From the NCBI GenBank assembly GCA_022486705.1, contig JAKVKC010000016.1:17213-41212 (forward strand): 24,000 nucleotides of DNA, given 5' to 3'. Below, piece by piece: positions 1,307-16,354 of the stretch; position 1 is the first letter of the stretch, and each line of letters starts with the position of its first letter. The position numbers and the translations under genes were made by a program. The notes below the pieces were generated by a model, which was not told where the DNA came from, ran no database searches, and saw only the letters and a program-made list of their open reading frames with translations. The DNA comes from Solobacterium sp. (GTDB lineage: Bacteria > Bacillota_I > Bacilli_A > Erysipelotrichales > Erysipelotrichaceae).

Positions 1307-2847
1307 TTTTCCAATCTCCTGCTGAGCTGTTCATAAGTAAGCCCATGTTGATGGACAATATACATTGCGTAAGCCAAGCCATCCGGTGGCCTGCGGACAA
1401 TACGATAGGATCTTTCCGGCGGATCGCTGGAAAGAAGTGTGCTCATCAGGCTGACAGTTTCCGGGCCATGCAGGGCAAGCTCATCCAGAAAAGTCACGAT
1501 GGCACAGGGTGCGCCAAGCGCAGCGAAGAAGTCCACCATGCGTGTGCCTAAAGACTCAGCGTCAGTCAGCGTTGTTGAAGAAAAGATCTCATTGATGATG
1601 ATCAGGCTCCGCTTTGTTGCTTTATCTTCTATTTCATGAAGACGGATCAGATCATCCTGAAGCTTTCCATTCTGACTGGATGGCACTTCCTCTCGTTCAA
1701 AATGAGTCAGGATCTGATCAAAGAGGAACAGCGATGCTTTTTTCGCCGGAACAGGAAGACCCAGTGATGCAAGATAATGGATCTGTCCAAACATACGGGC
1801 AAAAGTGGTCTTGCCGCCTTGGTTTGGACCGGTGATCACAAAGATCCTTTCGCCAGCCTGAAAATGAAAATCATTGCTGATGGTATTTCGACCTATCTTT
1901 GCTGCCAGAGCTAAGTCATATCCTGAGACGGCATAGACTTTGTCAATCGTATCTGTAATTGCGGGACGGCAGAATGAAATGCCTGCTTCCTGCATCGGAT
2001 GAATGAAACTGATCCATGATGCATAGAATTGAAATTCACGTGAAAACTGTGTCAGAGTTTTATCACAGAAACAGCAGAATCGGTCATAGAACAGATCCAA
2101 TTTTTGAAATGGTTCGCGAAAGATCTTGCTCAGCATTCCCAGCACAGCTGTCTCCACATGTTCTGCTCTTGGATCTTCACTGAAGTGATGCCGGTAATCC
2201 TGATTGGATCCCTGGTCAAACTTTTTAAAAAGATCCAGCACCTGAGAAGAAAGATCAGGCTGTCCTTCATATTTTCGGACTCTGATTGTGCCGCCCTTCA
2301 GCAGCATGCAGTACTGCAGACCGCTGAACTCCTTGCGAAGAGAGACCGATGTCTGTTTTAAATCGGTAAATGCGGCCGAAGAAGAGTAGCTTTTCAGATA
2401 TGCTTTGAAAGCCAGCATTCCTGCTGACTGCAGTGCACTGTGCGCCAGAGCATCTTCCAATGTCAGAACAGAAGTGCAGTATTGTTCAGCACAGTGAAGC
2501 ATTTTTCCACGCAGCAGATAATCATTCTCTTTCGTTTTCTGCGCAGAGATCTCCTGACGAATCGAATCCATGCGCTGATCAAGCTGATATACCGTATGGG
2601 AGAATTCAGTCAGGACCTGATACAGACTGCTGCTGTTCAGCTCTTCAAAAATAGCCTGCCGGTATGATATGAGGAATCTGTCCTGCAGAGGGACATAGAA
2701 GAAATCCTCCAATTGATACTCTTTGCCTGACTTCAGGATGGGATCGATGATCTGATCAAGATTCAGATCATGAAAGCATGCAGGCTGCAAAGCATGGCGT
2801 GATCTTTCTTCCTGAGCACTGTCAGTGAATAATATACTGAAATACAT
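1303..2847 (-). CDS. MutS-family domain-V (ABC-type) ATPase, paralog A (no mismatch-binding or Smr domain)
   Basis: 514-aa ORF with SD AAAGGAG upstream of ATG 2847. C-terminal half carries MutS domain V motifs: Walker A ITGPNQGGKTTFARMFGQ, SSQNGKLQDDLIRL (signature-like position), Walker-B-like SLIIINEIFSSTT, and tail SYRIVRRPPDGLAYAMYIV (compare MutS SYGIxVA). N-terminal half is helical with no recognisable domain I. Short compared with canonical MutS, which carries additional N-terminal domains. Confidence 0.8.
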   Translation of the reverse strand: MYFSILFTDSAQEERSRHALQPACFHDLNLDQIIDPILKSGKEYQLEDFFYVPLQDRFLISYRQAIFEELNSSSLYQVLTEFSHTVYQLDQRMDSIRQEISAQKTKENDYLLRGKMLHCAEQYCTSVLTLEDALAHSALQSAGMLAFKAYLKSYSSSAAFTDLKQTSVSLRKEFSGLQYCMLLKGGTIRVRKYEGQPDLSSQVLDLFKKFDQGSNQDYRHHFSEDPRAEHVETAVLGMLSKIFREPFQKLDLFYDRFCCFCDKTLTQFSREFQFYASWISFIHPMQEAGISFCRPAITDTIDKVYAVSGYDLALAAKIGRNTISNDFHFQAGERIFVITGPNQGGKTTFARMFGQIHYLASLGLPVPAKKASLFLFDQILTHFEREEVPSSQNGKLQDDLIRLHEIEDKATKRSLIIINEIFSSTTLTDAESLGTRMVDFFAALGAPCAIVTFLDELALHGPETVSLMSTLLSSDPPERSYRIVRRPPDGLAYAMYIVHQHGLTYEQLSRRLEK

Positions 2848-2904
2848 AGTCTGCTCCTTTCTCTGTATTCATGTTCCTTCTAAGAGAACGATACTGTCAT
2901 AAGG

Positions 2905-3525
2905 TCAATGTTTTGATGCATGTTTTGCCAAAGCACAGAGCGATGCCGATAGATCTTCATTGCGCACCAGAACGTGCGGCGGTACTTTCAGATTTGCTGA
3001 AGTGAAATTCCAAATGGCAATGATGCCGCAGGAGACCAGTGCATCGCAGACCGTCTGGGCGTGCCCTCCGGGTACAGTAATGATGCCAATCTCTGCATGC
3101 AGGGTGCGGCAGATATTACCAAGCTGATCGACAGGATAGACTGGCTTTCCGCATACACCTCTTCGAATGATCTTTGCATTGATATCAAAGCCTGCCATGA
3201 TGTCCAGACCATAGACCGAGAATCCCGCATAGCTCATCAAGGCTGAACCAAGTTTTCCAGCTCCTACAAGAATGACACCAGCTGTACTGCGCAGGGATAG
3301 ATACCTTCCTGCTGCATTCAGCAGTGCATCACGATCTTCATTCTCTATGTTTTCTTTCTGAAGCAGATCTTTCAGATCCTGCCTCACTGTGGGTAGCGGC
3401 AGCGAGAGCGCCTGTGCCATATCTTTTGGTGAGATGGAGAGAATATCCCAGGGCAGATCTTTCAGATAATGGAGATATAGATTCAGCCGGTGAATGGTGC
3501 CGACACTCAGCGGTTCATGATTCAT
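2905..3525 (-). CDS. rex: Rex-family redox-sensing transcriptional repressor, divergent in the DNA-binding region
   Basis: 206 aa. N-terminal winged-helix-like segment: IHRLNLYLHYLKDL...ISPKDMAQALSLPLPTVRQDL. Rossmann/CoA-binding-type domain with VILVGAGKLGSAL (GxGxxG), then IGIITVP and AIWNF, typical of Rex. SD AAAGGAGAA before ATG 3525. Confidence 0.7.
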   Translation of the reverse strand: MNHEPLSVGTIHRLNLYLHYLKDLPWDILSISPKDMAQALSLPLPTVRQDLKDLLQKENIENEDRDALLNAAGRYLSLRSTAGVILVGAGKLGSALMSYAGFSVYGLDIMAGFDINAKIIRRGVCGKPVYPVDQLGNICRTLHAEIGIITVPGGHAQTVCDALVSCGIIAIWNFTSANLKVPPHVLVRNEDLSASLCALAKHASKH

Positions 3526-3549
3526 GTGTTTCTCCTTTCTGCTGTATAT

Positions 3550-3590
3550 AAAAAAGCTGACAGCATCTGCATTGTGCAGAAGTCATCAGC
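3550..3590 (-). terminator. Intrinsic-terminator-like hairpin plus U-tract between aspA and the rex-like gene
   Basis: Minus-strand RNA: GCUGA-UGACU-UCUGCA-CAA-UGCAGA-UGCUG-UCAGC-UUUUUUAUAUA. Inner 6-bp stem is 3566-3571/3575-3580; outer 5-bp stem is 3556-3560/3586-3590, with an internal loop. U-tract is the complement of A3550-3555. It ends about 25 nt before the rex ATG. Confidence 0.5.
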
Positions 3591-3640
3591 TGATCAGCAG
3601 TTTCGGCATGGCCGTGGGAGAACTTCTTTCCCGTGCCCAA

Positions 3641-3669
3641 ATTATATTACAAGTGATTTTTCATAGCAA
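3641..3669 (-). promoter_or_regulatory. Sigma-A-type promoter candidate TTGCTA-17 nt-TATAAT directed toward the rex-like gene
   Basis: Minus strand: -35 TTGCTA (3669->3664), 17-nt spacer, -10 TATAAT (3646->3641). It starts 9 nt after the aspA stop codon and lies upstream of the terminator-like hairpin. Confidence 0.5.
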
Positions 3670-3677
3670 CGGATATT

Positions 3678-5018
3678 TCAGCTGTGGATCCTCTCACTGA
3701 TCTTTGCAATCAGCTGATCTAGGATCTCTTTCGCATTCTCTGGTGTGTTTTCTTTGATAATATGGCTGACCCGGTCATATCCCAGACGTCCGATATAAGC
3801 AGTGCCAAAAGCACTGGAGCTCATCAATAAGCGATGGCATTTTTCAGCATTCGGTGTCAGTGTCTCGATGCATTTGACATTGAACAGATGCACGCCTGCA
3901 TTCAGCAGATCCAAGCTTTCCAGCAGACTGTCTGCGATCAATGGAAAGAAAGCATTCAGTTCAAACTCACCGCGGGAAGAAGCCATTGTGATTGCTTCAT
4001 CATTGGCAATGACGCGCATTGCGACTTCCATGATCATTTCCGGTATGACTGGGTTGATCTTGCCTGGCATAATAGAAGAACCTTGCTGCAGAGCCTGCAG
4101 ATGGATCTCATTCAGACCGCCATTTGGACCGCTGGACATCAGCCGGATATCACCGGCGATCTTCAGTAAATTGACAGCCAAGGCTTTTAGCAGCCCAGAC
4201 ACTTCTACGAAGACATCATTATTCTGCGTCGGATCCATCAGATCTTCTGGTTCTTCTAAATGCAGCCCCGTAATCTCATTCAGTTTCTGTACAGCCAATA
4301 CACGGTATTCTTTCGTAGAGTTGTTGCCAAGGCCAACCGCTGTGCCGCCAAGATTGATCTTGCTTAAACGATCTTCACTGACTTTCATACGGCCATGGTC
4401 GCGATGGATGGCATCGGCATACGCATTGAATTCATTCCCTAATGTAATAGGTACGGCATCCATCAGCTCTGTTCTGCCAAGTTTGCGGATCTCAGCAAAT
4501 TCATCTGCTCTTTTTCTAAGAGATGTTTCCAGCAGATCGCATTCATTGCTTAAGTGCCTTAGTCTGATGATGGCAGAAATGCGCAGTGCTGTAGGACAGT
4601 CATCATTGGTCGACTGCCCGCGGTTGACATCATCCAAAGGATGAATGATGGCATACTCTCCTGGCTTATGACCAAGCTTTTTTAAAGCAGCGTTGGCAAC
4701 AACTTCATTGACATTCATGTTGGTCGATGTGCCAGCACCGCCCTGGAATGCGCTTAAGAAGAAAGAACTGTCATATTTTCCTGCCGTGACATCATCACAG
4801 GCGCTGGCGACTGCCTCATAGATTCCTTTCTCGCGGACACCTAACTGTTCATAGGCAAGGGCAGCAGCCTTTTTGACAATGGCCAAGGAATGGATCAATT
4901 GCAGATCTGTGATCTTTCCAGGCAGTTTGAAATTGGAAGCTGCTCTTAAGGTATTGATGCCAAAAAGGTCATCATCCTGCAGTTCCATGGAACCAAGTGA
5001 ATCCTGTTCAATACGCAT
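3678..5018 (-). CDS. aspA: Aspartate ammonia-lyase (aspartase), class II fumarase/aspartase superfamily
   Basis: 446 aa. N-terminus MRIEQDSLGSMELQDDDLFGINTLRAASNF. Signature loop GSSIMPGKINPVIPE; NPVxPE is aspartase-like, whereas fumarase has NPTQCE. SD GGAGGG before ATG 5018. Confidence 0.85.
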   Translation of the reverse strand: MRIEQDSLGSMELQDDDLFGINTLRAASNFKLPGKITDLQLIHSLAIVKKAAALAYEQLGVREKGIYEAVASACDDVTAGKYDSSFFLSAFQGGAGTSTNMNVNEVVANAALKKLGHKPGEYAIIHPLDDVNRGQSTNDDCPTALRISAIIRLRHLSNECDLLETSLRKRADEFAEIRKLGRTELMDAVPITLGNEFNAYADAIHRDHGRMKVSEDRLSKINLGGTAVGLGNNSTKEYRVLAVQKLNEITGLHLEEPEDLMDPTQNNDVFVEVSGLLKALAVNLLKIAGDIRLMSSGPNGGLNEIHLQALQQGSSIMPGKINPVIPEMIMEVAMRVIANDEAITMASSRGEFELNAFFPLIADSLLESLDLLNAGVHLFNVKCIETLTPNAEKCHRLLMSSSAFGTAYIGRLGYDRVSHIIKENTPENAKEILDQLIAKISERIHS

Positions 5019-5101
5019 GTTTTATTTTCCCTCCGAAAATGATTTTATGCCGGCATGCACCGTATGATTTATCTTTGCATTGTTCTCAAATTTCTTACTT
5101 C

Positions 5102-5130
5102 ATTATAGGCAGAAATAAAGTAACGCTTAA
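5102..5130 (-). promoter_or_regulatory. Candidate aspA promoter (-10 TATAAT, weak -35 TTAAGC) overlapping a degenerate cre-like core
   Basis: Minus strand: TATAAT (5107->5102), 17-nt spacer, TTAAGC (5130->5125). The TAAGCGTTA core (5121-5129) resembles the centre of a CcpA cre box, but the flanks do not match. Confidence 0.35.
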
Positions 5131-5148
5131 GAAAAATGCTAGTTTGAA

Positions 5149-7056
5149 TTAGAACATTTTACTGATAAATTCTTGATATGTTTTACTTTCAATTAAAGCA
5201 GATAGCTGATCGACATTATTTGAAAGATTTGTCATCCAGTCAAAGAATGGCTTAACAGCCTGACTTTCCATTTTTTCAACAGCCAGGAGAAAAATGATGC
5301 GAACCTCATAAGAGCCCCATTGAACTGGTTTGCGCAGAATCATGACAGAGATATTGGATTGCAGGACAGTGTGGTTGACGGGATGCGGAATAGCAAATCC
5401 GCAACTGAAAGAGGTTGGCGACATCGATTCCCGCTTCAGCAATGAACTGTAAAAATCTTTGGATACCGCAAGGGAATGATAGAGATCATCTGACAGAAAG
5501 CGCAGAATCTCTTCTCTTGAATCAAAGACCATGTCTTTATAGAAATGCTGAGGACGTATCATTTCTCTGAGGTATTCCGAGTATTCATCTTTCAATCTTT
5601 TCTGCTCGATATTATTTAATAGGGAAAAAATCTTTGCTTCATCCTCACGCGATAAAAAAATGGAAATCTGAACGGTAGGAATAGGAAGATTATGCTGCAG
5701 TGGTACAGAACAGATGATTAAATCAGGATGAAGGCGGAGAATCTTGCTTTCTTCAAAATAATCAAATGCTTCAACTACAGTCATGTATTCAGAAAAATTT
5801 AAGTTCATTCTCTGAAGGATTGAATCAGTGATTGCCTGTGTTTTCGGCATGATCAAAACAGCTCTCAGAAGCTTATCATCCTCAAGACGTTTATATGCCA
5901 TGCCTAGATGCAGAGCAATAAAACCGATTTCATCTTCAACGATTGGAATATTCAGACGTTCAGAAAGATAATTGGCACTGGTAACACCAAGTTCAAAAAT
6001 CAGAGGAAATTTACGCTTTATTTCCTGAAGATATAGATTTGCTGCATTGATATTTTTATGAGATCTTTCAACTAATGACTGCAGATGCAGAGCCAGTCCT
6101 ACTTTCAGTACTTCATCATTGCTAAAGTTTATGCCATACTGCTGATCAATATATTGAATCAGATCTGTGACTAACTCTTTGGCATTGATATCTGCAATGC
6201 CAATCAGCTGAGCATCATTATATGCAGATCCTTTTTTCCCCATCAGAAGCAGAGCAAGCTGTGCAGCTTCACTGTCAGCAACATGTGTCTGATACAGTTT
6301 GCTGATTCTTTGAAAGAATTCTATGGCTATCTTGAACTCTTCAGAATCATAGACTGCTTCGGTTGAATGTGATGACTGTACATATTTTCCATTGATAATG
6401 CGATCAACTGAAATGCCGACATGCAGGATCAAAGATGGAAAAGAAGAATCATCAACAGAATAGTTATGTGCTTCCAAAATTGTTTCCAAAATATACTTGC
6501 ACTTCAATAGATCAAAGTTAGTGTACATTGAAGCAATTTCATTGATATTCAGAAAGTTTCTATGTGTTTCATCAAGCATCATGATCTTATAAAGTTCACG
6601 GATACTTTCCTCTGGTCCCTGCAGAGAAAGCAAATCTCCGCTTCTCTGTATCTCCAGATCAGGATATGAACTGATGGCTCTGCGAATGCTCTTTAGATCA
6701 TTTTCCAGCGTATATTCAGAGATATACAGATCGTTCAGAAGACGATTTACATGAACTCTATCACGGCATACCAAAAGCTGTTTAATAATATAGCTTTTTC
6801 GTTCATTTGGTGTCTGCGGAATAGATGAATGGTTTTTTTCGCTGATAGCTGTTTGTGTCATCTGCTCCGGTTCAATACGGTATCCCTGACGGATACTTGA
6901 TTCAATCAGAGGCTGTACAGTATTGCTGTTGATTGTATTGACATCAGAACGGATAGTACGGTCTGATACATTCAGAATCTTTGAAAGTTCGCGTGCAGTG
7001 ATCCATCCGCCTTGATTTCTTAAGATACTGATTAATTGCTCCTTGCGATTATTCAT
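5149..7056 (-). CDS. PRD-domain, PTS-controlled transcriptional regulator (HTH - PRD - PRD - EIIB-like - EIIA(Mtl/Fru)-like; LicR/MtlR/ManR class)
   Basis: 635 aa. N-terminal HTH: ITARELSKILNVSDRTIRSDV. PRD-type His motifs: SLILHVGISVDR, GLALHLQSLVER, GFIALHLGMAYKR. C-terminal EIIA-2-type GFAIPHP. Divergent from a PTS operon. Confidence 0.85.
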   Translation of the reverse strand: MNNRKEQLISILRNQGGWITARELSKILNVSDRTIRSDVNTINSNTVQPLIESSIRQGYRIEPEQMTQTAISEKNHSSIPQTPNERKSYIIKQLLVCRDRVHVNRLLNDLYISEYTLENDLKSIRRAISSYPDLEIQRSGDLLSLQGPEESIRELYKIMMLDETHRNFLNINEIASMYTNFDLLKCKYILETILEAHNYSVDDSSFPSLILHVGISVDRIINGKYVQSSHSTEAVYDSEEFKIAIEFFQRISKLYQTHVADSEAAQLALLLMGKKGSAYNDAQLIGIADINAKELVTDLIQYIDQQYGINFSNDEVLKVGLALHLQSLVERSHKNINAANLYLQEIKRKFPLIFELGVTSANYLSERLNIPIVEDEIGFIALHLGMAYKRLEDDKLLRAVLIMPKTQAITDSILQRMNLNFSEYMTVVEAFDYFEESKILRLHPDLIICSVPLQHNLPIPTVQISIFLSREDEAKIFSLLNNIEQKRLKDEYSEYLREMIRPQHFYKDMVFDSREEILRFLSDDLYHSLAVSKDFYSSLLKRESMSPTSFSCGFAIPHPVNHTVLQSNISVMILRKPVQWGSYEVRIIFLLAVEKMESQAVKPFFDWMTNLSNNVDQLSALIESKTYQEFISKMF

Positions 7057-7079
7057 ATATCAGCTGTTCTCCGATTTCT

Positions 7080-7107
7080 ATTATAAAGAAGAAAATAAAG
7101 CAAGCAA
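7080..7107 (-). promoter_or_regulatory. Candidate promoter of regulator 1 (TTGCTT-16 nt-TATAAT)
   Basis: Minus strand: -10 TATAAT (7085->7080) and -35 TTGCTT (7107->7102). The same AT-rich block (TATTATAAA, 7079-7087) is the only -10-like element for the divergent plus-strand operon, which has no good -35. That is consistent with activator dependence. Confidence 0.4.
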
Positions 7108-7115
7108 CGATACAT

Positions 7116-7135
7116 ATTTCCTAGTACTAGGAAAT
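7116..7135. promoter_or_regulatory. Perfect 20-bp palindrome ATTTCCTAGTACTAGGAAAT, 11 nt upstream of the first operon ATG
   Basis: Self-complementarity checked base by base. It lies between the -10-like element and ATG 7147. As RNA it would form an 8-bp stem with a GUAC loop that includes the only SD-like AGGAAA. Confidence 0.45.
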
Positions 7136-7146
7136 AACTAACATAC

Positions 7147-8073
7147 ATGGATCTTCAAACGTTCTGTAATATAGTTGCAGGGGCTCGGAGAATGCAGAAA
7201 TTGGCAAAACAAGTGAAGCGTCAGATATGGTTCCGATATTTCTATACGGCTCTGATGGTCGCTTTATCTGCACTTATGATCACAGCAGCACTGGAAATGT
7301 TCCTGCGCCCAGCCGGCTTTTTGCCAAGCGGATTTACAGGACTGGCAAATTTAATACAGATGTCCGCTGAACAAGGCGGAATCCACCTGAATCTTGGCAT
7401 GATTGTTGTTCTGCTGAATATCCCTGCGGCGCTTCTTTGCCTTAAAGGTATTTCACTGAAATTCACTATATTTTCTTCTCTTCAGGTCATTCTGCTTTCG
7501 ATTTTTTTGAATTGCTGTCATTTTACACCAGTATTTGCTGATCCGATTTTAAATGCAATTGTTGGAGGTGTTATTTATGGCCTGGGTATTGTAGTTGCTT
7601 TGAAGGGCAATGCAAGTACCGGAGGAACAGATTTTATTGCTTTATATATTTCTAATAAAACAGGCAGAGGAATCTGGAATTATGTTTTTTTGTTCAATTG
7701 CAGTCTTCTTTGCATATTTGGCATCAAGTTTGGCTGGGAATTGGTTGGATATTCAGTTTTATGTCAATTTATATCTACGAAGATGATTGAGTCTCTCTAT
7801 CACCGATATGAACGTTCGACTTTGCAGATCACCACAAAAAAGCCTGAGGAATTGGTCAGGGCATATACTAGCCATTACCGTCATGGCATTACGATTCTGC
7901 AGGGCGTAGGCGGATATTCAAATACACCATATTATGTACTGAATACAGTAGCTTCGTCATATGAGGCAAAAGATATTGCGCATCAGATGCTGAGTGTGGA
8001 TCCTCACGCCATCATCAATGTATATAAGACCGAGGAATTTTACGGCGGATTCTATCGCGAACCAATGGAATAA
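7147..8073 (+). CDS. YitT-family integral membrane protein (DUF161-type repeats plus C-terminal DUF2179-like domain)
   Basis: 308 aa with multiple TM segments. GGTDFIALYIS motif. C-terminal soluble domain: ITILQGVGGYSNTPYYVLNTVASSYEAKDI...INVYKTEEFYGGF. Start is uncertain: ATG 7147 or 7192, neither with a well-spaced SD. Confidence 0.75.
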   Translation: MDLQTFCNIVAGARRMQKLAKQVKRQIWFRYFYTALMVALSALMITAALEMFLRPAGFLPSGFTGLANLIQMSAEQGGIHLNLGMIVVLLNIPAALLCLKGISLKFTIFSSLQVILLSIFLNCCHFTPVFADPILNAIVGGVIYGLGIVVALKGNASTGGTDFIALYISNKTGRGIWNYVFLFNCSLLCIFGIKFGWELVGYSVLCQFISTKMIESLYHRYERSTLQITTKKPEELVRAYTSHYRHGITILQGVGGYSNTPYYVLNTVASSYEAKDIAHQMLSVDPHAIINVYKTEEFYGGFYREPME

Positions 8074-8085
8074 GGAGAAAAAGGT

Positions 8086-9039
8086 ATGTGGACGATTGTA
8101 GCAACATGGCGAATGGCATTGGAAGGTGTTCAGGAGGCATCAAAGATCTTGGCAGAACAGGGAGATGCCTGTGATGCAGTAGAAACGGCAGGGAAAATGG
8201 TAGAAGACAACCAGTGGTATAAATCGGTTGGATTCGGCGGACTGCCAAATGAAGAAATGGATGTGGAACTTGATGCTGGATTTATGAATGGCAATACGAT
8301 GGGAGTTGGTGCTGTTGCAGGTATTCATGATTTTGCAAATCCAATATCTATTGCCAGAAGACTGAGCAGGGAAGAAACGAATTGTATGCTTGCAGGATTG
8401 GGGGCAGAACGTTTTGCATCTCATGAAGGTTTTGAAAGAAAAAACATGCTGACAGACAGAGCAAAGAGACTGTATCGTGAAAAAATACAGGAAACGAAAC
8501 AGACACAGAATCCATATAAGGGACATGATACGGTCGGCATTGCGGCAGTTGACCAAAATGGAAAGATTGCTGCTGGAACATCTACTAGCGGCCTGTTCCT
8601 TAAGAAACCAGGAAGAATTGGAGATTCGCCCGTTGTTGGAAGCGGCTTCTATGCAGACAGTGAGACAGGCGCAGCCTGTGCTACTGGTCTTGGCGAAGAT
8701 TTAATGAAAGGATGCATATCTTACGAAATTGTACGTCGGATGAAAGATGGCGAAGGTGTACAGGATGCCTGTGATCATGCTGTATCTGCTCTAGAACAGA
8801 AATTGAGAAGAAGCCGTGGTAAAGCAGGAGATCTTTCTGTTGTTGCTATTGATAAGAATGGAAATTATGGTGCCGCAACAAATATTGATGGTTTCTCCTT
8901 TGTTGTTATGAAAGAAAATGAAGAGCTAAAAGTATTTGTTACAAAAGCAAACAATGGACATACGACATATTCTGAAGCAAGCGAAGAATGGCTGGCGGAG
9001 TATATGTCGACACACAGTGCACTAGTGGAGAAAAAATGA
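8086..9039 (+). CDS. Glycosylasparaginase (N4-(beta-N-acetylglucosaminyl)-L-asparaginase; Ntn-hydrolase, asparaginase-2 family), no signal peptide
   Basis: 317 aa. ATW...DAVE...SVGFGGLPNEEMDVELDAGFMNGNTMGVGAVAG. Autoprocessing/nucleophile motif GHD-TVGIAAVD. AAGTSTSG and GRIGDSPVVGSGFYAD closely parallel human AGA HDTIG/AAGTSTNG/GRVGDSPIPGAGAYAD as I recall them. The protein starts directly with the mature domain (MWTIVATW). SD AGGAGA precedes it. Confidence 0.8.
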   Translation: MWTIVATWRMALEGVQEASKILAEQGDACDAVETAGKMVEDNQWYKSVGFGGLPNEEMDVELDAGFMNGNTMGVGAVAGIHDFANPISIARRLSREETNCMLAGLGAERFASHEGFERKNMLTDRAKRLYREKIQETKQTQNPYKGHDTVGIAAVDQNGKIAAGTSTSGLFLKKPGRIGDSPVVGSGFYADSETGAACATGLGEDLMKGCISYEIVRRMKDGEGVQDACDHAVSALEQKLRRSRGKAGDLSVVAIDKNGNYGAATNIDGFSFVVMKENEELKVFVTKANNGHTTYSEASEEWLAEYMSTHSALVEKK

Positions 9040-9797
9040 AGATGAGAGTAGAAATATGCTGCGGTAGCTATGATGATTGTATTCAATCCGAAAAAGGCGG
9101 TGCAGATAGAGTGGAACTGAACAGTGCATTATTCCTTGGCGGTCTGACTCCATCGGATGCAACTGTCAGAAAAACAATTGAGAACTGTCATCTGCCGATT
9201 ATCTGCATGGTCAGACCTCGCGGAGCCGGATTCTGCTATCAGCCATGGGAAGCGGAAATCATGTTCTCTGATGCTGAAAGAATGCTGAATCTTGGGTGTG
9301 CCGGCATTGCTTTCGGGTTTCTAAATGAGGATCGAACAATCAACAATGCATGGACAAAAAGAATGATTGAATTGATCCATTCCTATCCAGGAAAAAGAGA
9401 AGCAGTTTTTCATCGCGCATTCGACTGTGTGCAGGATATGGATGCTTCAATACAGCTTCTGATTTCACTAGGATGCGATCGTGTCTTGACGTCTGGCGGC
9501 AAAGGAAAAGCATTTGATGGTGCAGAAAGAATCAGAGATCTGCAAAAGAATTATGGAAATAAAATCGAAATTTTAGCAGGCAGCGGTATCAATGCTGGGA
9601 ATGCTGCAGACCTAATTCTGCAAACCGGCATTGCCCAAGTGCATTCAAGTGCAAAAACATGGGAGATTGATTCAACGACGACTGCTCAAGATGTCAGCTA
9701 TGCCTATCATGGGAAATTTGACTATGATGCTGTGTCTCTATCAAAAGTCAGAGAGTTGGCAGATGCAGTACGAAACATGCAGCATTCAGGAAGATGA
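9036..9797 (+). CDS. cutC: CutC-family TIM-barrel protein (annotated copper-homeostasis protein; true function unclear)
   Basis: Start trimmed from track ORF 8988 to in-frame ATG 9036, giving an ATGA overlap with the upstream stop (9037-9039) and a GGAG 6 nt upstream. MKMRVEICCGSYDDCIQSEKGGADRVELNSALFLGGLTPS is a typical CutC N-terminus. 253 aa. Confidence 0.85.
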   Translation: MKMRVEICCGSYDDCIQSEKGGADRVELNSALFLGGLTPSDATVRKTIENCHLPIICMVRPRGAGFCYQPWEAEIMFSDAERMLNLGCAGIAFGFLNEDRTINNAWTKRMIELIHSYPGKREAVFHRAFDCVQDMDASIQLLISLGCDRVLTSGGKGKAFDGAERIRDLQKNYGNKIEILAGSGINAGNAADLILQTGIAQVHSSAKTWEIDSTTTAQDVSYAYHGKFDYDAVSLSKVRELADAVRNMQHSGR

Positions 9798-9807
9798 GGG
9801 ATTGAAT

Positions 9808-10128
9808 ATGGAAGGCAATGAATTGATAAGTTTTCACATTATTTCAGCAGCAGGAGCATCGAGAAGTATGTATATTGAAGCCATGCGTGCAATCCGTGAA
9901 GGAAATTTGACGAAAGCAGAAGCTTTGGTAGATCAGGGGACAGAAGAATTTAATAAAGCTCATTTGGAGCATGCATCACTGATTCAAAAAGAAGCGGCAG
10001 GTGAAAAGGTAATGATGGATCTTCTCTTGGTGCATGCGGAAGATCAGATTATGAGCACAGAAACAATCAAGATCTTAACAGATGAAGAACTTGCCTGGGC
10101 ACAGAAAAATGCAGAAAGAAAGGTTTAG
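9808..10128 (+). CDS. PTS EIIA component, lactose/cellobiose (Lac) family
   Basis: Start trimmed to ATG 9808 (SD GAGGG, 7-nt spacing). 106 aa. ISFHIISAAGASRSMYIEAMRAIREGNLTKAEALV...LLLVHAEDQIMS (phospho-His region). Confidence 0.85.
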   Translation: MEGNELISFHIISAAGASRSMYIEAMRAIREGNLTKAEALVDQGTEEFNKAHLEHASLIQKEAAGEKVMMDLLLVHAEDQIMSTETIKILTDEELAWAQKNAERKV

Positions 10129-10131
10129 TTT

Positions 10132-10755
10132 ATGACAGCAAGAAAGAAAACAAGAATAGCAGTGAACAGTAAAGCATCCAGCAGAGTTGGATATTTTATT
10201 CGCAGGATACTTGCCTTTGGACTTGATTATCTGATCGTCAATCGTGTCTGCATCATGGCAACAGCACTTGTATATGGAATGATGAACCATGGAGAGGTAA
10301 TTATTTTGAGTGACCTTTCCAGTGTGCCGCTCCTACAATGTGCAGTGATCTTAACTGTGATTTTTATCATATCCATTCTGTATTTTGTTTATATTCCATA
10401 TCATGTCTGGAAAGGACAGACACTTGTACAGCATGTTTTTCAGCTGAAAATGGTCAATGAGAATCATGAGGATGTAGATCTCAAGACACAGCTGAAAAGA
10501 TTTATTATTGGCTGCCTATTATTGGAGGGGACATTTTATTACTTTACATCTGTACTGAAAAATGTAGTTATTCTGAAGTTCTTATACAGCAATCCGGAAA
10601 CAATGGATTGGATCTTGAGCGGTCCGATCTTACTGCTGTCAGCATATTCAATGATCTCGTCTTTGCTTGATAAAAAACAGAGCAGGACACTGCATGACCG
10701 TATCTTTCATACAGAAGTCATTGATATTTATGATGGTACCGGACATGCATTGTAA
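10132..10755 (+). CDS. RDD-family-like integral membrane protein, function unknown
   Basis: 207 aa. N-terminal YFIRRILAFGLDYLIVN resembles the RDD-domain signature. Several hydrophobic segments. Starts 3 nt after the EIIA stop. Confidence 0.5.
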   Translation: MTARKKTRIAVNSKASSRVGYFIRRILAFGLDYLIVNRVCIMATALVYGMMNHGEVIILSDLSSVPLLQCAVILTVIFIISILYFVYIPYHVWKGQTLVQHVFQLKMVNENHEDVDLKTQLKRFIIGCLLLEGTFYYFTSVLKNVVILKFLYSNPETMDWILSGPILLLSAYSMISSLLDKKQSRTLHDRIFHTEVIDIYDGTGHAL

Positions 10756-10846
10756 TTTTCCTAGGAAGCGGAAATGAGCTTGCAAAGAAGCGTATAAATT
10801 ATCCGCTAGGATAAAGGTAGCAAAAAAAGATGAAAGGAGGATAATC

Positions 10847-11188
10847 ATGATTCGAAAGATATATCTGTTCTGCAATGCCGGCATGTCAACATCATTGATG
10901 GCCAGCAAAATGCAGAAAGTTGCTGATGATCATAAGATCCCTGTGGAAGTGAAAGCCTTCCCAGATGGACAGATTGATAAGATCGTCGCAGAGAGCAATC
11001 CAGATGTCATATTGCTTGGACCTCAAGTGAAGTATCTGTATGAAAAAATTACAGATAAGTATGGAGATTCAGGAAAACTGATTGATGTCATTGATCAGGA
11101 AGACTATGGAAGCATGAATGGTGAACGTGTATTGAAACAAGTGTTAGTCAATCTTAAAAAACAAGAAAGTGAAAAAAAGGGGAAATAA
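10847..11188 (+). CDS. PTS EIIB component, Lac family
   Basis: 113 aa. IYLFCNAGMSTSLMASKMQ contains the catalytic Cys loop. Strong SD AAGGAGG at 10834-10840. Confidence 0.9.
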   Translation: MIRKIYLFCNAGMSTSLMASKMQKVADDHKIPVEVKAFPDGQIDKIVAESNPDVILLGPQVKYLYEKITDKYGDSGKLIDVIDQEDYGSMNGERVLKQVLVNLKKQESEKKGK

Positions 11189-11194
11189 TTCATT

Positions 11195-12538
11195 ATGATG
11201 AAAAAACTGGAAAGCTGGCTGATGCCGATAGCCAATACTTTATCTAAGAATAAAGTGTTGATATCCATCAGAGATGGCTTCATCTTCGCACTGCCAATGA
11301 TTGTTATTGGCTCTATCTTCCTGCTGATCTCAAACTTCCCAATTGAAGGCTGGTCTGAATTTGTTGCCAGTTTTGCTGGAAAAGGATGGGAAACCAATTT
11401 TGATGCAGTAACTTCAGCAACATTCGACTGCTATGCGATTCTTGGATGTATGGGTATTGCATATGCCTATGCACGTGAGAATGGTGTAGACAAGATTGAA
11501 TGTGCACTTCTTTCGTTAGTCAACTTCTTGATCTTAGCACCTAAGTCATTCCCTGATTATGTCAATGCGAATGGCAAGGCATTCTCTGGATTTGCCTTTG
11601 CAAATTTGGGAACAAAAGGCATCTTCTTAGCTATGATCACAGCTATCTTCACAGTTCTGATGTTTAAATTTGTTGTGAAGAAGCATTGGGTCATCAAACT
11701 TCCTGATGGAGTTCCGCCTGCAGTTATGGATTCCTTCGCTGCTTTGATCCCGGCTGCATTTACAATGGTCGTCTTCTTTATTGTAAATATCATCTTCACG
11801 CATACATCATTTGGCAATGCACCTGCTTTCATCTACGCAGTGCTGCAGGCACCATTGATGGGAGTTGGACGGTCTGCTGGATTTGAGGTACTGTATCAGT
11901 TCTTGAGCACACTGTTCTGGCTGTTTGGTATCAATGGACCTGCTGTTACAAATACAATTTTCTCGCCAATCCATCAGGCATTGACACTGGAAAACTACGA
12001 AGCAGCAGCTGCTGGTCTGCCAATGACAAACATCTTTACCGCAGGGTTCTCAGACTTCTTCTGCAATTTCGGCGGCGGCGGTTCTACACTGGGCTTAGTA
12101 ATCATGATGGCATTCTTTGCCAAGTCAAAGCGCATGAAGACTTTAGGAAAGCTTTCACTCCCAGCTGCTATCTTTGGAATTAATGAGCCGATCATCTTCG
12201 GACTTCCTATTGTGCTGAACCCATTGATGGCTATTCCATTTATGCTGGCACCTGTACTGAACACAATACTTGCACAGATTGCAACGCAGATTGGGTTCAT
12301 ACCAATTACCATCGGTGTTCAGCTGTCATGGACAACGCCGATCTTTATCTCAGGATTCTTAGTTACAGGATCAATCAATGCAGTTATTCTGCAGGCAGTA
12401 CAGCTTGCAATGGATATGGGAATCTATTATCCATTTATGAGAATGCAGGACATCAAGTATCTTGAAGATGAGAAAAATGTAGATAATAAGAAAGATGATC
12501 TGGACGATCTGTCCTTCGATGATCTGCAGCTGAATTGA
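11195..12538 (+). CDS. PTS EIIC permease, Lac (cellobiose/chitobiose) family
   Basis: 447 aa, polytopic. The N-terminal LSKNKVLISIRDGFIFALPMIVIGSIFLLISNFP and INEPIIFGLPIVLNP motifs are typical of ChbC/CelB-type EIIC. Confidence 0.9.
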   Translation: MMKKLESWLMPIANTLSKNKVLISIRDGFIFALPMIVIGSIFLLISNFPIEGWSEFVASFAGKGWETNFDAVTSATFDCYAILGCMGIAYAYARENGVDKIECALLSLVNFLILAPKSFPDYVNANGKAFSGFAFANLGTKGIFLAMITAIFTVLMFKFVVKKHWVIKLPDGVPPAVMDSFAALIPAAFTMVVFFIVNIIFTHTSFGNAPAFIYAVLQAPLMGVGRSAGFEVLYQFLSTLFWLFGINGPAVTNTIFSPIHQALTLENYEAAAAGLPMTNIFTAGFSDFFCNFGGGGSTLGLVIMMAFFAKSKRMKTLGKLSLPAAIFGINEPIIFGLPIVLNPLMAIPFMLAPVLNTILAQIATQIGFIPITIGVQLSWTTPIFISGFLVTGSINAVILQAVQLAMDMGIYYPFMRMQDIKYLEDEKNVDNKKDDLDDLSFDDLQLN

Positions 12539-12539
12539 T

Positions 12540-13064
12540 ATGAAAGTTGTGCTGATATTTGATTCCGGTCTATCCGGCGAAGGAGGAAAATCCAATCCTA
12601 ACTGTCCTTTAGGAGCAGCACATGGTGGGATTGGAACGGCTCAGATCATGGAGCCTGCATTTAAAAAGATTAATGCGGAAGTACAGGCAACTCTCTATTG
12701 CGGTGTTGGCTATTACGCTGAGCATTCAGAAGAGGTCGTTGCAAAAATGACGGCGATGATCAAACGTTTAAACCCGGATTTTGTTGTGTGCGGTCCTGGG
12801 TTCAACTTCCCTGAGTATTCTGAAATGTGTGCTGCATGCTGTGCATCGATTTTAGCAAATACAGATGTACATGCATGTGCAATGATGTCAAAGGAAAATG
12901 TTGATGTGATTGACAAGTATGCAAAACAGGTGCCAATTTTGAAAATGCCAAAAAAAGGCGGCACAGGATTAGGGGATTCCTTTGATGCATTGGCAGAATA
13001 CATGGAAGCAAGTGTTTCTCATCCAGAAAAAATTGCTGAGCTTTCCGAAAAGTACTGCTATTAA
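12540..13064 (+). CDS. Small soluble protein resembling the N-terminal part of glycine/sarcosine/betaine/D-proline reductase component B (GrdB/PrdB family); function unknown
   Basis: 174 aa. MKVVLIFDSGLSGEGGKSNPNCPLGAAHGGIGTAQ...NPDFVVCGPGFNFPEYSEMC parallels my recollection of GrdB N-termini (VVHYINQFFAGIGGEEKA...P...GPG...PDLFIAGPAFNAGRYG). ATG lies 1 nt after the EIIC stop with no SD, suggesting coupling. Confidence 0.45.
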   Translation: MKVVLIFDSGLSGEGGKSNPNCPLGAAHGGIGTAQIMEPAFKKINAEVQATLYCGVGYYAEHSEEVVAKMTAMIKRLNPDFVVCGPGFNFPEYSEMCAACCASILANTDVHACAMMSKENVDVIDKYAKQVPILKMPKKGGTGLGDSFDALAEYMEASVSHPEKIAELSEKYCY

Positions 13065-13104: not shown

Positions 13105-13118
13105 AAAAGGAGACTAAA

Positions 13119-14162
13119 ATGAAAGACGAAAATATAAAACGTGCGATGCAGCTTGCTTCAGCGATGGGTGTCAGCGGTGAAGAAAATGATGTTCGAAAAA
13201 TAATGACTCATGCATTTGGAAATGATCATCTCTGCAGTGATCGTCTCGGCTCACTTTTCTGTGTAAAAGAAACGAAAAGCAAAGATGCTCCAACTTTGAT
13301 GATTGCAACAAATTTAGATGAGCCAGGCTTAATGATCGATGAGATCCTTTCTGATGGCAGACTTTCTTTTGTTGCATTGGAAGATCTTTCACCAGCCAGT
13401 TTGCTGCATCAGAGAGTGCAGATCTGGACACGAAGTCATAAATGCCGCTATGGCATCATTTCATGCATTCATACAAAATTTATGGAAGAAGCTAAATCAT
13501 CTGTTTTACTTTCTGAACTGACAATTGAAACGGGAATGAGTCAAAAAGAAGCAGATGAAACATTTCATATAGGCGATCTGGCATGTATTGACGGTGATCC
13601 AATGATGCTGAATGAACATATGATGACTGGTAAAGCATTATACAATCGTATTCTTCTTGAAGCAATATTGGAAATAAGAGAATCTTTGGAGAAAGACAAA
13701 TTAGATTATAGAATTGCTTTTGGCGGCATTGCACAGTCGGTGATTGGATGGCGTGGGACTAAAACAGCTACATATGTAGTCAGACCGGATGCGGCGCTCG
13801 TCTTGACAGGCTTCGAGATCAATGCATCTGATCCGTTAATTCATTTTGGTGACGGTACAATCTGTGAATACTATGATAAGCAGATGCTGCCAAGCAGGAT
13901 GCTGCTGAATGATTTTACAAAAAATGTCGAAACAGTCCCTTATTTCGGCTATTACGGGAATGATGGTTCATTTATACATAAAACAATCAAAGGAACACCA
14001 TCATTGGCTGTGGGAATTGGAATGAAGAATATCGGAACTAACACAGTGATTGCTGATCTGAACGATATAGATACTTTAGTAAAGAATGTTGCTGCATACT
14101 GCCGTCATCTAAATGCTGAACAAATACGGAAGTTCCAGTTTGAGGCTGAACATGAACACTGA
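13119..14162 (+). CDS. M42-family (TET/FrvX/YsdC-like) peptidase homolog with all metal ligands substituted; predicted non-catalytic paralog
   Basis: 347 aa, clearly alignable with the next gene. Active-site positions differ: ATNLDEPG vs AAHMDEVG; KALYNRILL vs KALDDRAGC; IAQSVIGWRG vs IQEEPGLRG; LVLTGF vs LAVDTT; MKNIGTN vs IRYMHSM. Confidence 0.8.
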   Translation: MKDENIKRAMQLASAMGVSGEENDVRKIMTHAFGNDHLCSDRLGSLFCVKETKSKDAPTLMIATNLDEPGLMIDEILSDGRLSFVALEDLSPASLLHQRVQIWTRSHKCRYGIISCIHTKFMEEAKSSVLLSELTIETGMSQKEADETFHIGDLACIDGDPMMLNEHMMTGKALYNRILLEAILEIRESLEKDKLDYRIAFGGIAQSVIGWRGTKTATYVVRPDAALVLTGFEINASDPLIHFGDGTICEYYDKQMLPSRMLLNDFTKNVETVPYFGYYGNDGSFIHKTIKGTPSLAVGIGMKNIGTNTVIADLNDIDTLVKNVAAYCRHLNAEQIRKFQFEAEHEH

Positions 14163-15234
14163 AAGGTTATTGCAAGAATTGGCTGAGGCACCTGGCATCT
14201 CAAGTATTGAGGATGAGCCTAGAAAGATCATGCGGATGCATTTGCAGCAGCTTTCTGATCGTGTGTACCAGGATGGTCTTGGCTCGGTGATCGGTGTGCA
14301 GAATGAAGATGCTGATGGAATCAAAATTCAGTTTGCGGCTCACATGGATGAAGTGGGATTTATGGTGAAAATAGTCGATGAACATGGCTATCTTCGACTG
14401 CAGCCGATTGGTAGTATGTGGACACATGTTCTTCTTGGACAGCGTATGGATGTAAAAGCCGATAATGGCAGGATCTATGCTGGGGTTATCGGCTCGCCTG
14501 CCAGTCACGGACTACCAAAAGAAGTGAAAGAACGTACGATGGCAATGAATGATCTATATTTAGATATAGGGGCATCTTCACAGCTGCAGGTTTACAAAGC
14601 TGGCATCAGGCCTGGCTGTATGGTATTCCCTCATGGCTTATTTACTAAGATGCTAGACAATGATCGTGTCATGTGCAAAGCATTGGATGATAGAGCTGGG
14701 TGCGCGGCTGAATTAATTGCTTTTGAATATCTGCATGGCAGATACAATGCACCTTTATACTGTGCCGGAACAATTCAGGAAGAACCGGGATTGCGCGGGG
14801 CACGTACTGCAACGGACGTGATTCATCCAGATCTGTCTTTGGCAGTTGATACAACTGTTGCTGGCGATACGCCAGCAGACCATAATACATGCAGACTTGG
14901 CGGGGGTGCCGTTCTATCTATGATCGATTCAAATACAATTGCCCATCGTGGACTGATACGCTATGCTGAAACAATTGCAGCCGAGAAGAAGATACCAATC
15001 CAGTATGCTGTTTTCAAAGGCGGCGGCACGGATTCAGGAAATATTCATAAATCATTTGAAGGAATACTATCAATGACGATTTCAATTCCTATCCGTTATA
15101 TGCATTCAATGCAGTCAATTATCAGTATGCATGATGTGGAAGCATGTGCAGAACTTATGTCTGCAATGGTGCTTGGTATGAATCAAACAAAATATAAACA
15201 GCTGCTGAATGGCTGGGAGGACGATGATGACTAA
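14152..15234 (+). CDS. M42-family metallo-aminopeptidase (all canonical ligands present)
   Basis: Start trimmed to ATG 14152 (SD GAGG at 14142-14145), giving an 11-nt overlap with the upstream gene. 360 aa. LLQELAEAPGISSIEDEPRKIM; HMDEVG, DDRAG, QEEPG, AVDTT, RYMHS motifs present. Confidence 0.85.
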   Translation: MNTERLLQELAEAPGISSIEDEPRKIMRMHLQQLSDRVYQDGLGSVIGVQNEDADGIKIQFAAHMDEVGFMVKIVDEHGYLRLQPIGSMWTHVLLGQRMDVKADNGRIYAGVIGSPASHGLPKEVKERTMAMNDLYLDIGASSQLQVYKAGIRPGCMVFPHGLFTKMLDNDRVMCKALDDRAGCAAELIAFEYLHGRYNAPLYCAGTIQEEPGLRGARTATDVIHPDLSLAVDTTVAGDTPADHNTCRLGGGAVLSMIDSNTIAHRGLIRYAETIAAEKKIPIQYAVFKGGGTDSGNIHKSFEGILSMTISIPIRYMHSMQSIISMHDVEACAELMSAMVLGMNQTKYKQLLNGWEDDDD

Positions 15235-16354
15235 GGAAGAAATATTCAATCAGGTAGAAAGAAGAAGGCAGGATCTTATCGATGATGTATGCACAATGAT
15301 CCATATTGATTCACAGCGCAAAGAATCTCAGCTAGGCATGCCTTTTGGCAACGGCGTTGATGAAGCATTGCAGAAAGCTTTAAAAATCTGCCAAAGAGAA
15401 GGCCTGAAAATTGGAAATACAGACGGTTATATGGGATATGGACAATGGGGAATAGGCGAAAATCATATTGGTATTATGGGACACTTGGATGTTGTTGATA
15501 TTGGCGAAGGATGGGATGACCCAGCATTTTCTGCCGCAATTCATGATGGCAGAATCTGGGGAAGAGGCGCTTTAGATAATAAAGGGCCATTGTTTGCAGC
15601 ATTCTATGGTATGCTCGCACTTAAAGATTTAGGTATTATACCAAACATTCCAGTTCGTGTGATTTTTGGAACGAATGAAGAAACGGGCATGAAAGACTGC
15701 GTATACTATCTACAGCATGAAAAAGCACCGTTGATGGGATTTACACCAGATAATAAATTCCCAGCTGTTTACGGAAAGAAAGGACGTGCCGTCTTTGAAG
15801 TCAGCGGAGCGATAGATCGTGTTGTGAAATTTGCTAATGATTATCTTTTAAATGCCCGTTCAAATGGAGATCGATTAGGAATTGCATATAAAGATTCACG
15901 CTTTGGCGAAATGCAGATCCGTACAAAGACTCTGTTTCAGACAAAGGATGGTATAGGAATCAGATTTGCACTGAGCTACCCGGATTGTGATATCAATGAT
16001 GTTACTGCAAAGATTTCTTCTGCAGCCAATGGATTGAAAACAGTGCTTGCTGAGGATTCTCCGGTTTTAGCACATGATCCAGATTCATGGTTCGTACAGA
16101 CGGTAAATCATGCTTATGAAGAGGCAACAGATACGAAAGCTGAACCAACAACAACTTCTGGTGGGACATATATGAATGTCTGTCCAACGATCATCAATTA
16201 TGGTCCGAGTTTCCCTGGGCAGAATGGTATAGCACATCAGCCGAATGAATGGATGGATATTGAAGATTTAGTGAAATGTACCAAGATTTATGCATGGACA
16301 TTGTATAAACTCTGTATGTCTGAATCGGACATTGATCCATGGGAGAAAGCATAA
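15224..16354 (+). CDS. M20-family dipeptidase, PepV/Sapep-like with a short lid region
   Basis: Start at ATG 15224 or 15227 (SD GGGAGG at 15215-15220), overlapping the upstream stop at 15232-15234. Motifs: GHLDVV, GRGALDNKGP, GTNEETG, FTPDNKFP, and C-terminal GGTY...IAHQPNEWMDIEDL. About 376 aa. Confidence 0.75.
   Translation: MMTKEEIFNQVERRRQDLIDDVCTMIHIDSQRKESQLGMPFGNGVDEALQKALKICQREGLKIGNTDGYMGYGQWGIGENHIGIMGHLDVVDIGEGWDDPAFSAAIHDGRIWGRGALDNKGPLFAAFYGMLALKDLGIIPNIPVRVIFGTNEETGMKDCVYYLQHEKAPLMGFTPDNKFPAVYGKKGRAVFEVSGAIDRVVKFANDYLLNARSNGDRLGIAYKDSRFGEMQIRTKTLFQTKDGIGIRFALSYPDCDINDVTAKISSAANGLKTVLAEDSPVLAHDPDSWFVQTVNHAYEEATDTKAEPTTTSGGTYMNVCPTIINYGPSFPGQNGIAHQPNEWMDIEDLVKCTKIYAWTLYKLCMSESDIDPWEKA

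Follow-up and report, generated by a model that had tools for sequence, protein, structure and literature searches.

A metal-ligand-free M42 peptidase paralogue maintained beside an intact partner in Bacillota, and its probable role as a non-catalytic subunit of a TET-like peptidase

Why would a bacterium maintain, immediately upstream of an intact aminopeptidase gene, a full-length paralogue from which every catalytic residue has been lost? The question is raised by a 24,000-nucleotide stretch of DNA from Solobacterium sp. (contig JAKVKC010000016.1; hereafter the window), whose forward strand carries two adjacent genes of the M42 peptidase family, the only two in this genome. M42a (13119-14162) encodes a ligand-less M42-fold pseudo-peptidase of 347 aa, recognized from PF05343, structure alignments, AlphaFold2 and Foldseek comparisons and the ratio of nonsynonymous to synonymous substitution rates (dN/dS), and M42b (ATG at 14152, end at 15234) encodes an intact M42 aminopeptidase of 360 aa, recognized from PF05343 and its ligand signature HDDDEEDH. 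We consider it probable that M42a forms part of a hetero-oligomeric TET-like peptidase, as a non-catalytic subunit, and that this peptidase serves a pathway for N-acetylglucosaminyl-asparagine (GlcNAc-Asn) or glycopeptides.

Both proteins belong to the same fold family, as evidenced by PF05343 scores of 126.7 bits for M42a and 280.8 bits for M42b (cut-off 23.2), the M42a match spanning profile positions 1-290 of 292, and they are co-linear over their full length at 24% identity. Ligand positions were placed by HMMER alignment to 1vhe and to PhTET2 (1y0r), plus MAFFT alignments. N65 of M42a (codon 13311-13313) falls at PhTET2 His68, the first His ligand; Y175 (13641-13643) at the bridging ligand Asp182, the first D of the 'DD' motif, with N176 at the non-ligand second position; S207 at Glu212, the catalytic general base, and V208 at the ligand Glu213 (13737-13742 for the two codons); T230 (13806-13808) at the ligand Asp235, where MAFFT gives T and HMMER gives a gap; and G306 (14034-14036) at the ligand His323. 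The net result is the replacement of five of five metal ligands together with the catalytic Glu. The sequence-only reading of this locus had compared the motifs by eye and asked for a structure-based alignment to confirm the ligand positions; every substitution it listed proved correct. D67, the Asp of the HxD motif, is present in M42a and is invariant across the clade of ligand-less homologues described below (the dead clade). M42b retains H64, D179, E210, E211, D233 and H318 and scores 243 bits to 1vhe. M42a falls below the cut-offs of the NCBIfam M42 equivalogs (NF007421, 114.4 vs 412; TIGR03107, 107.7 vs 469.7), as does M42b (252.7 and 212.9, respectively). As an M42-fold homologue that fails the catalytic definition of its family, M42a is therefore classed as a pseudo-peptidase.

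An AlphaFold2 model of M42a, computed from an alignment of diverse dead-clade members, reached a predicted local distance difference test (pLDDT) score of 88.8 and a predicted template modelling (pTM) score of 0.90. In Foldseek searches this model aligned over its full length with 9a5r, 5ds0, 1vhe, 3kl9 and 1y0r at template modelling (TM) scores of 0.80-0.88, the top match being 9a5r, a model of the Bacillus subtilis YtoP-YsdC M42 heteromer. M42a is thus predicted to keep the two-domain M42 fold, with its catalytic domain and PDZ-like dimerisation domain. The lowest-confidence stretches of the model lie at about residues 207-213 (13737-13757), the former two-Glu loop, with low confidence at 210-213 shortly behind S207/V208, and at ~281-290 (13959-13988), a conserved GNDGSFIHKT loop; these loops may become ordered only within a complex or with a ligand.

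The evolutionary record of M42a is that of a constrained gene. Compared with its closest relative, on a contig of an Erysipelotrichaceae metagenome-assembled genome at 94% amino-acid identity, Nei-Gojobori dN/dS was 0.080 for M42a, 0.053 for M42b, 0.067 for the GrdB-like gene upstream, 0.111 for the M20 peptidase gene downstream and 0.069 for an AEC transporter gene. A search of 5.8 billion proteins returned 115 homologue clusters, at least 113 of which (34-93% identical) lack every ligand; the catalytic-Glu position is always Ser across these 113, and the ligand positions of the dead clade are occupied by N/S/P/A, Y/F/N, V/T/I, T/C and G/S. Among 30 diverse members 29 columns are invariant. 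A profile run against 1.84 billion representative proteins yielded ~15 clusters of the dead clade when grouped at 50% identity, and the open reading frame of M42a is intact in every locus examined. These data bear out the earlier supposition that the gene is maintained rather than decaying, and purifying selection on M42a is well supported by the comparison of homologues.

In the loci examined, M42a is never without an intact partner. M42b lies directly 3' of M42a in 17/17 loci, drawn from Erysipelotrichaceae, Helcococcus, Enterococcus, Romboutsia, C. innocuum and metagenome contigs. When 399 genomes of the phylum were scanned with a dead-clade profile, seven matches scored at least 380 bits, all from the window's own family, with the next at or below 257 bits, and each dead gene among these genomes was followed directly by an M42 gene with the signature HDD[DN]EEDH. 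The spacing of the pair tracks the state of M42a: the genes overlap or abut (-14 to 0 nt) in all 12 fully dead loci, and a gap of +8 to +44 nt separates them in all five loci whose M42a is intact or partly degenerate. In the window, direct reading of the sequence agreed with what had been noted earlier about the reading frame: it is full length at 347 aa, its ATG is preceded at a distance of 6 nt by the Shine-Dalgarno sequence AAGGAG (13107-13112), and its stop overlaps the start of M42b by 11 nt (14152-14162). The M42b frame is open back to 14113, yet homologues align from 14152, and a Shine-Dalgarno-like GAGG for this start lies at 14141-14144, within the coding end of M42a. A C-terminal 'F-G-F-G / FQFEAE' motif of M42a overlies the embedded M42b Shine-Dalgarno sequence (GGAG/GAGG/GGGG) at 14120-14151 of the window and also in loci L004-L014 and L042; an RNA signal for the M42b start may account for part of the conservation of this motif.

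Intermediate states of M42a were found as well. Two genomes, one of the same genus as the window, carry a 'half-dead' first paralogue (HDDNEEGY and HDESEEGY), followed in both by an intact M42, and on the contig that reaches far enough upstream (L038) the half-dead gene is preceded by a GrdB-like gene. In these variant loci (L038 = G378, same genus, 176-10937; L039) the D235 and H323 equivalents are lost, and additional M81/MlrC-like, M19 and M3 peptidase genes stand beside those for EIIA, EIIB, Asparaginase_2, M20 and CutC. Homologues of the half-dead protein range from intact in C. innocuum (HDDAEEDH) through partly degenerate in Enterococcus viikkiensis (HDNGEQDN) and Romboutsia weinsteinii (HDDNNEDK) to fully dead in Erysipelothrix rhusiopathiae (NDSNSVDD), and a module of EIIC, GrdB-like, M42a and M42b genes is common to these four species.

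A careful maximum-likelihood tree of 55 sequences (17 M42a, 17 M42b and 21 other Bacilli M42 proteins) sets apart all 17 M42a on one branch (support 100/96) and all 17 M42b on another (100/100); it also resolved the relationship of half-dead to dead proteins that a quick 201-row tree had left unresolved. All 12 fully dead M42a fall together in a single clade (100/99); their partners make up a single M42b subclade (98/94), whose internal groupings match. The pair is therefore old and inherited as a unit, and M42a is obligately linked to, and has co-diversified with, an M42b that is always intact. Decay has been one-sided: the ligands of M42b are complete in 17/17 loci, and at least one ligand or catalytic residue is substituted in 16 of the 17 M42a, with at least three separate partial-loss patterns (HDNGEQDN, HDDNNEDK, HDxxEEGY) in addition to one complete loss. 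These signatures, read on the tree, indicate that the metal site was lost completely once and in part at least three more times. Repeated decay on one side is expected if only one member of the pair need be catalytic. The dead clade sits on a long stem branch (0.66-1.3 substitutions per site), after which its rates come close to those of M42b, as illustrated by the path from the window to the related locus L009 (1.14 for M42a vs 1.21 for M42b); the similarity of within-clade path lengths to those of the partners therefore points to a burst on the stem followed by normal constraint.

We mapped residue roles by sequence from PfTET3 (PMC4745047) and PhTET2 (PMC8993905) and compared conservation in 111 dead-clade and 36 canonical sequences. 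The two-Glu loop of PfTET3 also makes inter-dimer contacts, through Q206, R212 and F219 (PMC4745047), and the dead clade retains this loop with both Glu residues gone: Q206 (0.96), G210, R212 (1.00), G213 and Y219 (0.93). The S1 Thr232 position of PfTET3 is occupied by an invariant Phe (F232), and a set of near-invariant residues is specific to the dead clade, namely E88 in the PDZ-like domain (in place of an invariant Gly), S207, N281, G283, S284, F285, Y252, Q255, M256 and P258. This residue pattern agrees with a subunit whose docking at the inter-dimer interface has been preserved.

The sequence-only reading had suggested that a dead subunit could be a structural or specificity-determining partner in a hetero-oligomeric TET complex, for example one that binds the glycan part of a glycopeptide. 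A partner role provides the best fit to strict adjacency, translational coupling, mirrored phylogenies and one-sided catalytic loss; for the more conjectural glycan binding, the operon context described below would suit a glycopeptide substrate. The physical association of M42a with M42b, which we infer from these sequence patterns, is rather probable. In the scenario that we favor, the catalytic site of M42a, first gene product of an old tandem pair, would have become dispensable, and the protein would have been kept as a non-catalytic subunit co-assembling with active M42b into a hetero-oligomeric TET-like particle, translational coupling ensuring that the two would be made in roughly equal amounts. 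Known M42 heteromers and natural M42-M42 fusions, both taken up below, offer precedents for it. The building blocks could be either a:b heterodimers or a2 and b2 homodimers, the latter as in PhTET2/PhTET3 (PMC4220976).

Several observations weigh against this scenario. Co-inheritance in one operon would yield mirrored trees even if the proteins never touched. The dimer salt bridge of PfTET3, R311-D137', is not conserved in M42a, where K303 is variable and E137 is D/E in ~60%, and the trans-acting loop His is lost (TET2 H123; K120 in M42a), a residue that in TET2 reaches into the neighboring active site (PMC8993905). M42b preserves all three features, the S1 Thr, the dimer salt bridge and the loop His; with the bridge and the His lost in M42a and kept in M42b, b2 homodimers fit at least as well as a:b heterodimers. 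Because metal at the M1 site stabilises the TET oligomer, and removal of M1 partly dissociates PfTET3 (PMC4745047), metal-free M42a may assemble non-canonically. Finally, a test for co-adaptation between the dead M42a clade and its M42b partners found no coincident fixed columns at a threshold of 0.9 and three at 0.8, against 0.93 expected (p=0.058, not significant), a result that favors neither side.

Some of the same residues could be read differently. M42a might have been repurposed to work alone, as a metal-independent ligand-binding protein or enzyme linked to M42b through a common pathway only. Near-invariance of S207, F232, N281/G283/S284/F285, E88, Y252, Q255, M256 and P258 close to the former active site or S1 pocket would suit such a role, the N281/G283/S284/F285 group occupying the canonical T-D-x-G-x loop, and a long stem followed by rates like those of M42b is as expected after a change of function. 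We nonetheless think it unlikely, since known motifs for catalysis or binding were not recognised in M42a, M42 proteins are obligate oligomers, conservation of D282, H287 and K288 in active M42 proteins too marks them as probably structural, and the stop/start overlap confined to the dead clade together with the kept Q206/R212/Y219 loop argues for stoichiometric assembly with M42b. Alternatively, the key contact could be between the GrdB-like protein and M42a, or all three proteins could form one machine. The GrdB-like gene lies 5' of M42a in 16/16 loci with upstream sequence, loci with an intact M42a included, and has a dN/dS of 0.067, but it is without a PDB relative and is also translationally coupled to the EIIC gene upstream. 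We rate this as quite improbable, and it would in any case be compatible with the TET-like particle proposed above.

Could M42a be a peptidase after all, a divergent one that binds metal through other residues? Its invariant E22, D41, D67, E68, D153, D253, D282 and H287 invite the idea, but most of them, including the sole His, H287, are equally conserved as non-ligands in canonical M42 proteins; of the acidic residues only E88, in the PDZ-like domain, is peculiar to the dead clade, and the residues now at the five ligand positions make no typical ligand set. With no clade-specific set of His, Asp or Cys, a cryptic metal site was rejected as very improbable. Loss of every catalytic residue might also mark a decaying pseudogene that is still open by chance. 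A dN/dS of 0.08, 113 full-length clusters reaching down to 34% identity, 29 invariant columns in 30 members, intact reading frames in all loci examined and a confident AlphaFold2 model run counter to decay, and on the strength of the dN/dS and the deep conservation this reading was rejected, its probability being negligible.

The neighbors of the pair suggest what a TET-like M42a/M42b particle would act on. Immediately upstream on the forward strand are genes for the EIIB (10847-11188) and EIIC (11195-12538) components of a Lac/cellobiose-family phosphotransferase system (PTS), identified by Pfam and NCBIfam matches, and for a GrdB-like protein of 174 aa without selenocysteine (12540-13064; NCBIfam NF041545, 211 bits vs a cut-off of 175), for which no PDB relative was found. 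Downstream, a gene for a short PepV-like M20 peptidase of 381 aa (15209-16354, forward strand) overlaps the end of M42b, and further upstream lies a forward-strand Asparaginase_2 gene (8086-9039; PF01112, 225 bits) of the glycosylasparaginase/isoaspartyl-peptidase family. Of the 16 loci with a GrdB-like gene 5' of the pair, 15 have it directly adjacent and one (L012) ~1 kb off, and EIIC precedes it wherever the locus extends that far; a triad of GrdB-like protein, M42a and M42b may be the conserved unit. The GrdB-like protein ranges in size from 172 to 186 aa (L004-L007, L009-L012, L014, L038, L040-L043) and precedes intact M42a too.

Bulleidia, Helcococcus kunzii and two metagenome contigs have in common the order EIIB, EIIC, GrdB-like, M42a, M42b, M20, and genes for Asparaginase_2, EIIA, an RDD protein, CutC, MupG, ROK and a PRD/EIIA regulator flank it in these four contexts. 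Across related loci the recurrent neighbors are the Lac-family PTS, Asparaginase_2, the short PepV-like M20, CutC, ROK or MupG, and YdjC, joined in Romboutsia by GH4; Asparaginase_2 was seen in nine of ten long loci (not in L043). The M20 proteins of related loci (L004-L007, L038, L041, L042) are likewise short, at 353-377 aa against ~466 aa for PepV, and the size of the window's protein is therefore a conserved feature, not a local truncation. In Erysipelothrix rhusiopathiae (L042, 1-999) the locus lies ~1.2 kb from a gene for a GH101 endo-alpha-N-acetylgalactosaminidase, and in Romboutsia weinsteinii (L041, 2260-4314) it contains genes for GH4 and YdjC, as chitobiose (chb) operons do.

This operon context (Asparaginase_2, Lac-family PTS, M20, CutC, ROK, YdjC) fits a glycopeptide substrate. 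In Lactobacillus casei a glycosylasparaginase, the M20 peptidase PepV and a ROK kinase make up a GlcNAc-Asn pathway, and glycosylasparaginase requires that the alpha-amino and alpha-carboxyl groups of the Asn be free (PMC6960285); aminopeptidases and a dipeptidase would therefore have a job in trimming imported glycopeptides. M42a, M42b and the GrdB-like protein would accordingly belong, with Asparaginase_2, the short PepV-like M20 and CutC, to a Lac-family PTS locus that trims an imported glyco-amino acid or glycopeptide in the cytoplasm, probably one containing GlcNAc-Asn, to free glyco-asparagine for the glycosylasparaginase. A more speculative extension, to which we assign a low likelihood, is that M42a, M42b and the GrdB-like protein form a glycopeptide-trimming TET machine in which the remodelled, metal-free M42a pocket (S207, F232, N281/S284/F285, E88) holds (phospho)GlcNAc and presents the peptide N-terminus to the active subunit; M42a would then be, equally doubtfully, a substrate-receptor pseudo-subunit of a self-compartmentalised bacterial peptidase.

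Inactive paralogue subunits are familiar from other assemblies, such as plastid ClpR in ClpP/R rings, the inactive beta subunits of the eukaryotic 20S proteasome, and Arabidopsis PDX1.2, which co-assembles with active PDX1 dodecamers. The pseudoenzyme PDX1.2 reportedly boosts vitamin B6 biosynthesis (Moccand et al. 2014, in the reference list of PMC6522883). In all three, as in M42a, duplication within a homo-oligomer was followed by loss of the catalytic residues from one paralogue, which was kept (in the case of M42a, probably) as a structural or modulating subunit, but ClpR, the proteasome beta subunits and PDX1.2 are of other folds and families. Within the M42 family a close parallel is the heterododecameric PhTET2/PhTET3 of Pyrococcus horikoshii, a TET peptidase (PMC4220976, which cites Appolaire et al. 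2014). Two M42 paralogues of one cell are likewise involved, there co-assembled in one tetrahedral particle whose activity is altered by subunit mixing; both of these archaeal subunits are active enzymes that differ in specificity, and homodimers are the units of the complex. In M42a/M42b, by contrast, one paralogue has no metal site, the two genes lie side by side with an overlap, and assembly is deduced from sequence patterns. The B. subtilis pair YtoP-YsdC, in contact according to in-cell cross-linking mass spectrometry (PMC10090944; PDB 9a5r), is likewise a Bacillota pair of M42 paralogues, although its description mentions neither an inactive member nor operon coupling or a PTS context. 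The closest relative of the pathway is the L. casei alf-2 cluster for fucosyl-GlcNAc-Asn, which similarly links Asparaginase_2, a PepV-like M20 and a ROK kinase and whose peptidase has been proposed to trim glycopeptides to GlcNAc-Asn; unlike the M42 locus, it uses a permease of the major facilitator superfamily (MFS) instead of a PTS for uptake and is without M42, GrdB-like and pseudo-peptidase genes (PMC6960285).

A search of the literature found no description of a ligand-free or inactive M42 subunit or of this operon. Dead M42 domains have at least one other setting. Fusions of two M42 domains (~640-790 aa; P0121, P0138, P0149, P0155, P0158, P0166, P0191, P0365-P0368) were found in the representative and homologue searches, those from the representative proteins being ~700 aa long; the first domain belongs to another M42 clade than the second, so that these proteins look like fused hetero-paralogue pairs. 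In one locus (L044, 4974-8046; P0364, also P0188 and P0363) a gene for a 344-aa M42 protein overlaps, outside any PTS context, one for a 681-aa fusion. The fusion belongs to a small lineage in which a live domain (HDDDEEEH) is linked to a dead partner (GD[SA]NKRN; GDANKRN in L044), after a third M42 gene, and whose signatures indicate an independent origin of a dead M42 domain, here covalently tied to a live one. Many further M42 lineages have partly or fully degenerate ligands, among them SDDTAKQK, NDSGNKEN and FDRRNEDN (P0118-P0160, P0178, P0190, P0193, P0198, P0254).

TET/M42 peptidases have been studied as homo-dodecamers, with mixed paralogue particles represented by one archaeal and one Bacillus example. 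M42 heteromers are thus already known, and the role that M42a most likely has, that of a non-catalytic partner, was not found described for the family. If the proposal is true, M42a would be the first pseudoenzyme member of the M42 family, and non-catalytic subunits could tune TET particles. The progression from intact through half-dead to dead M42a would offer a natural series for a homo-oligomer turning into an obligate hetero-oligomer. The locus that combines a PTS, the GrdB-like protein, M42a/M42b, Asparaginase_2, M20 and CutC is a widespread and uncharacterised one in Bacillota; judged from its gene content, it probably feeds on host or dietary N-glycopeptides, and assigning it in this way makes the roles of the GrdB-like protein and CutC testable.

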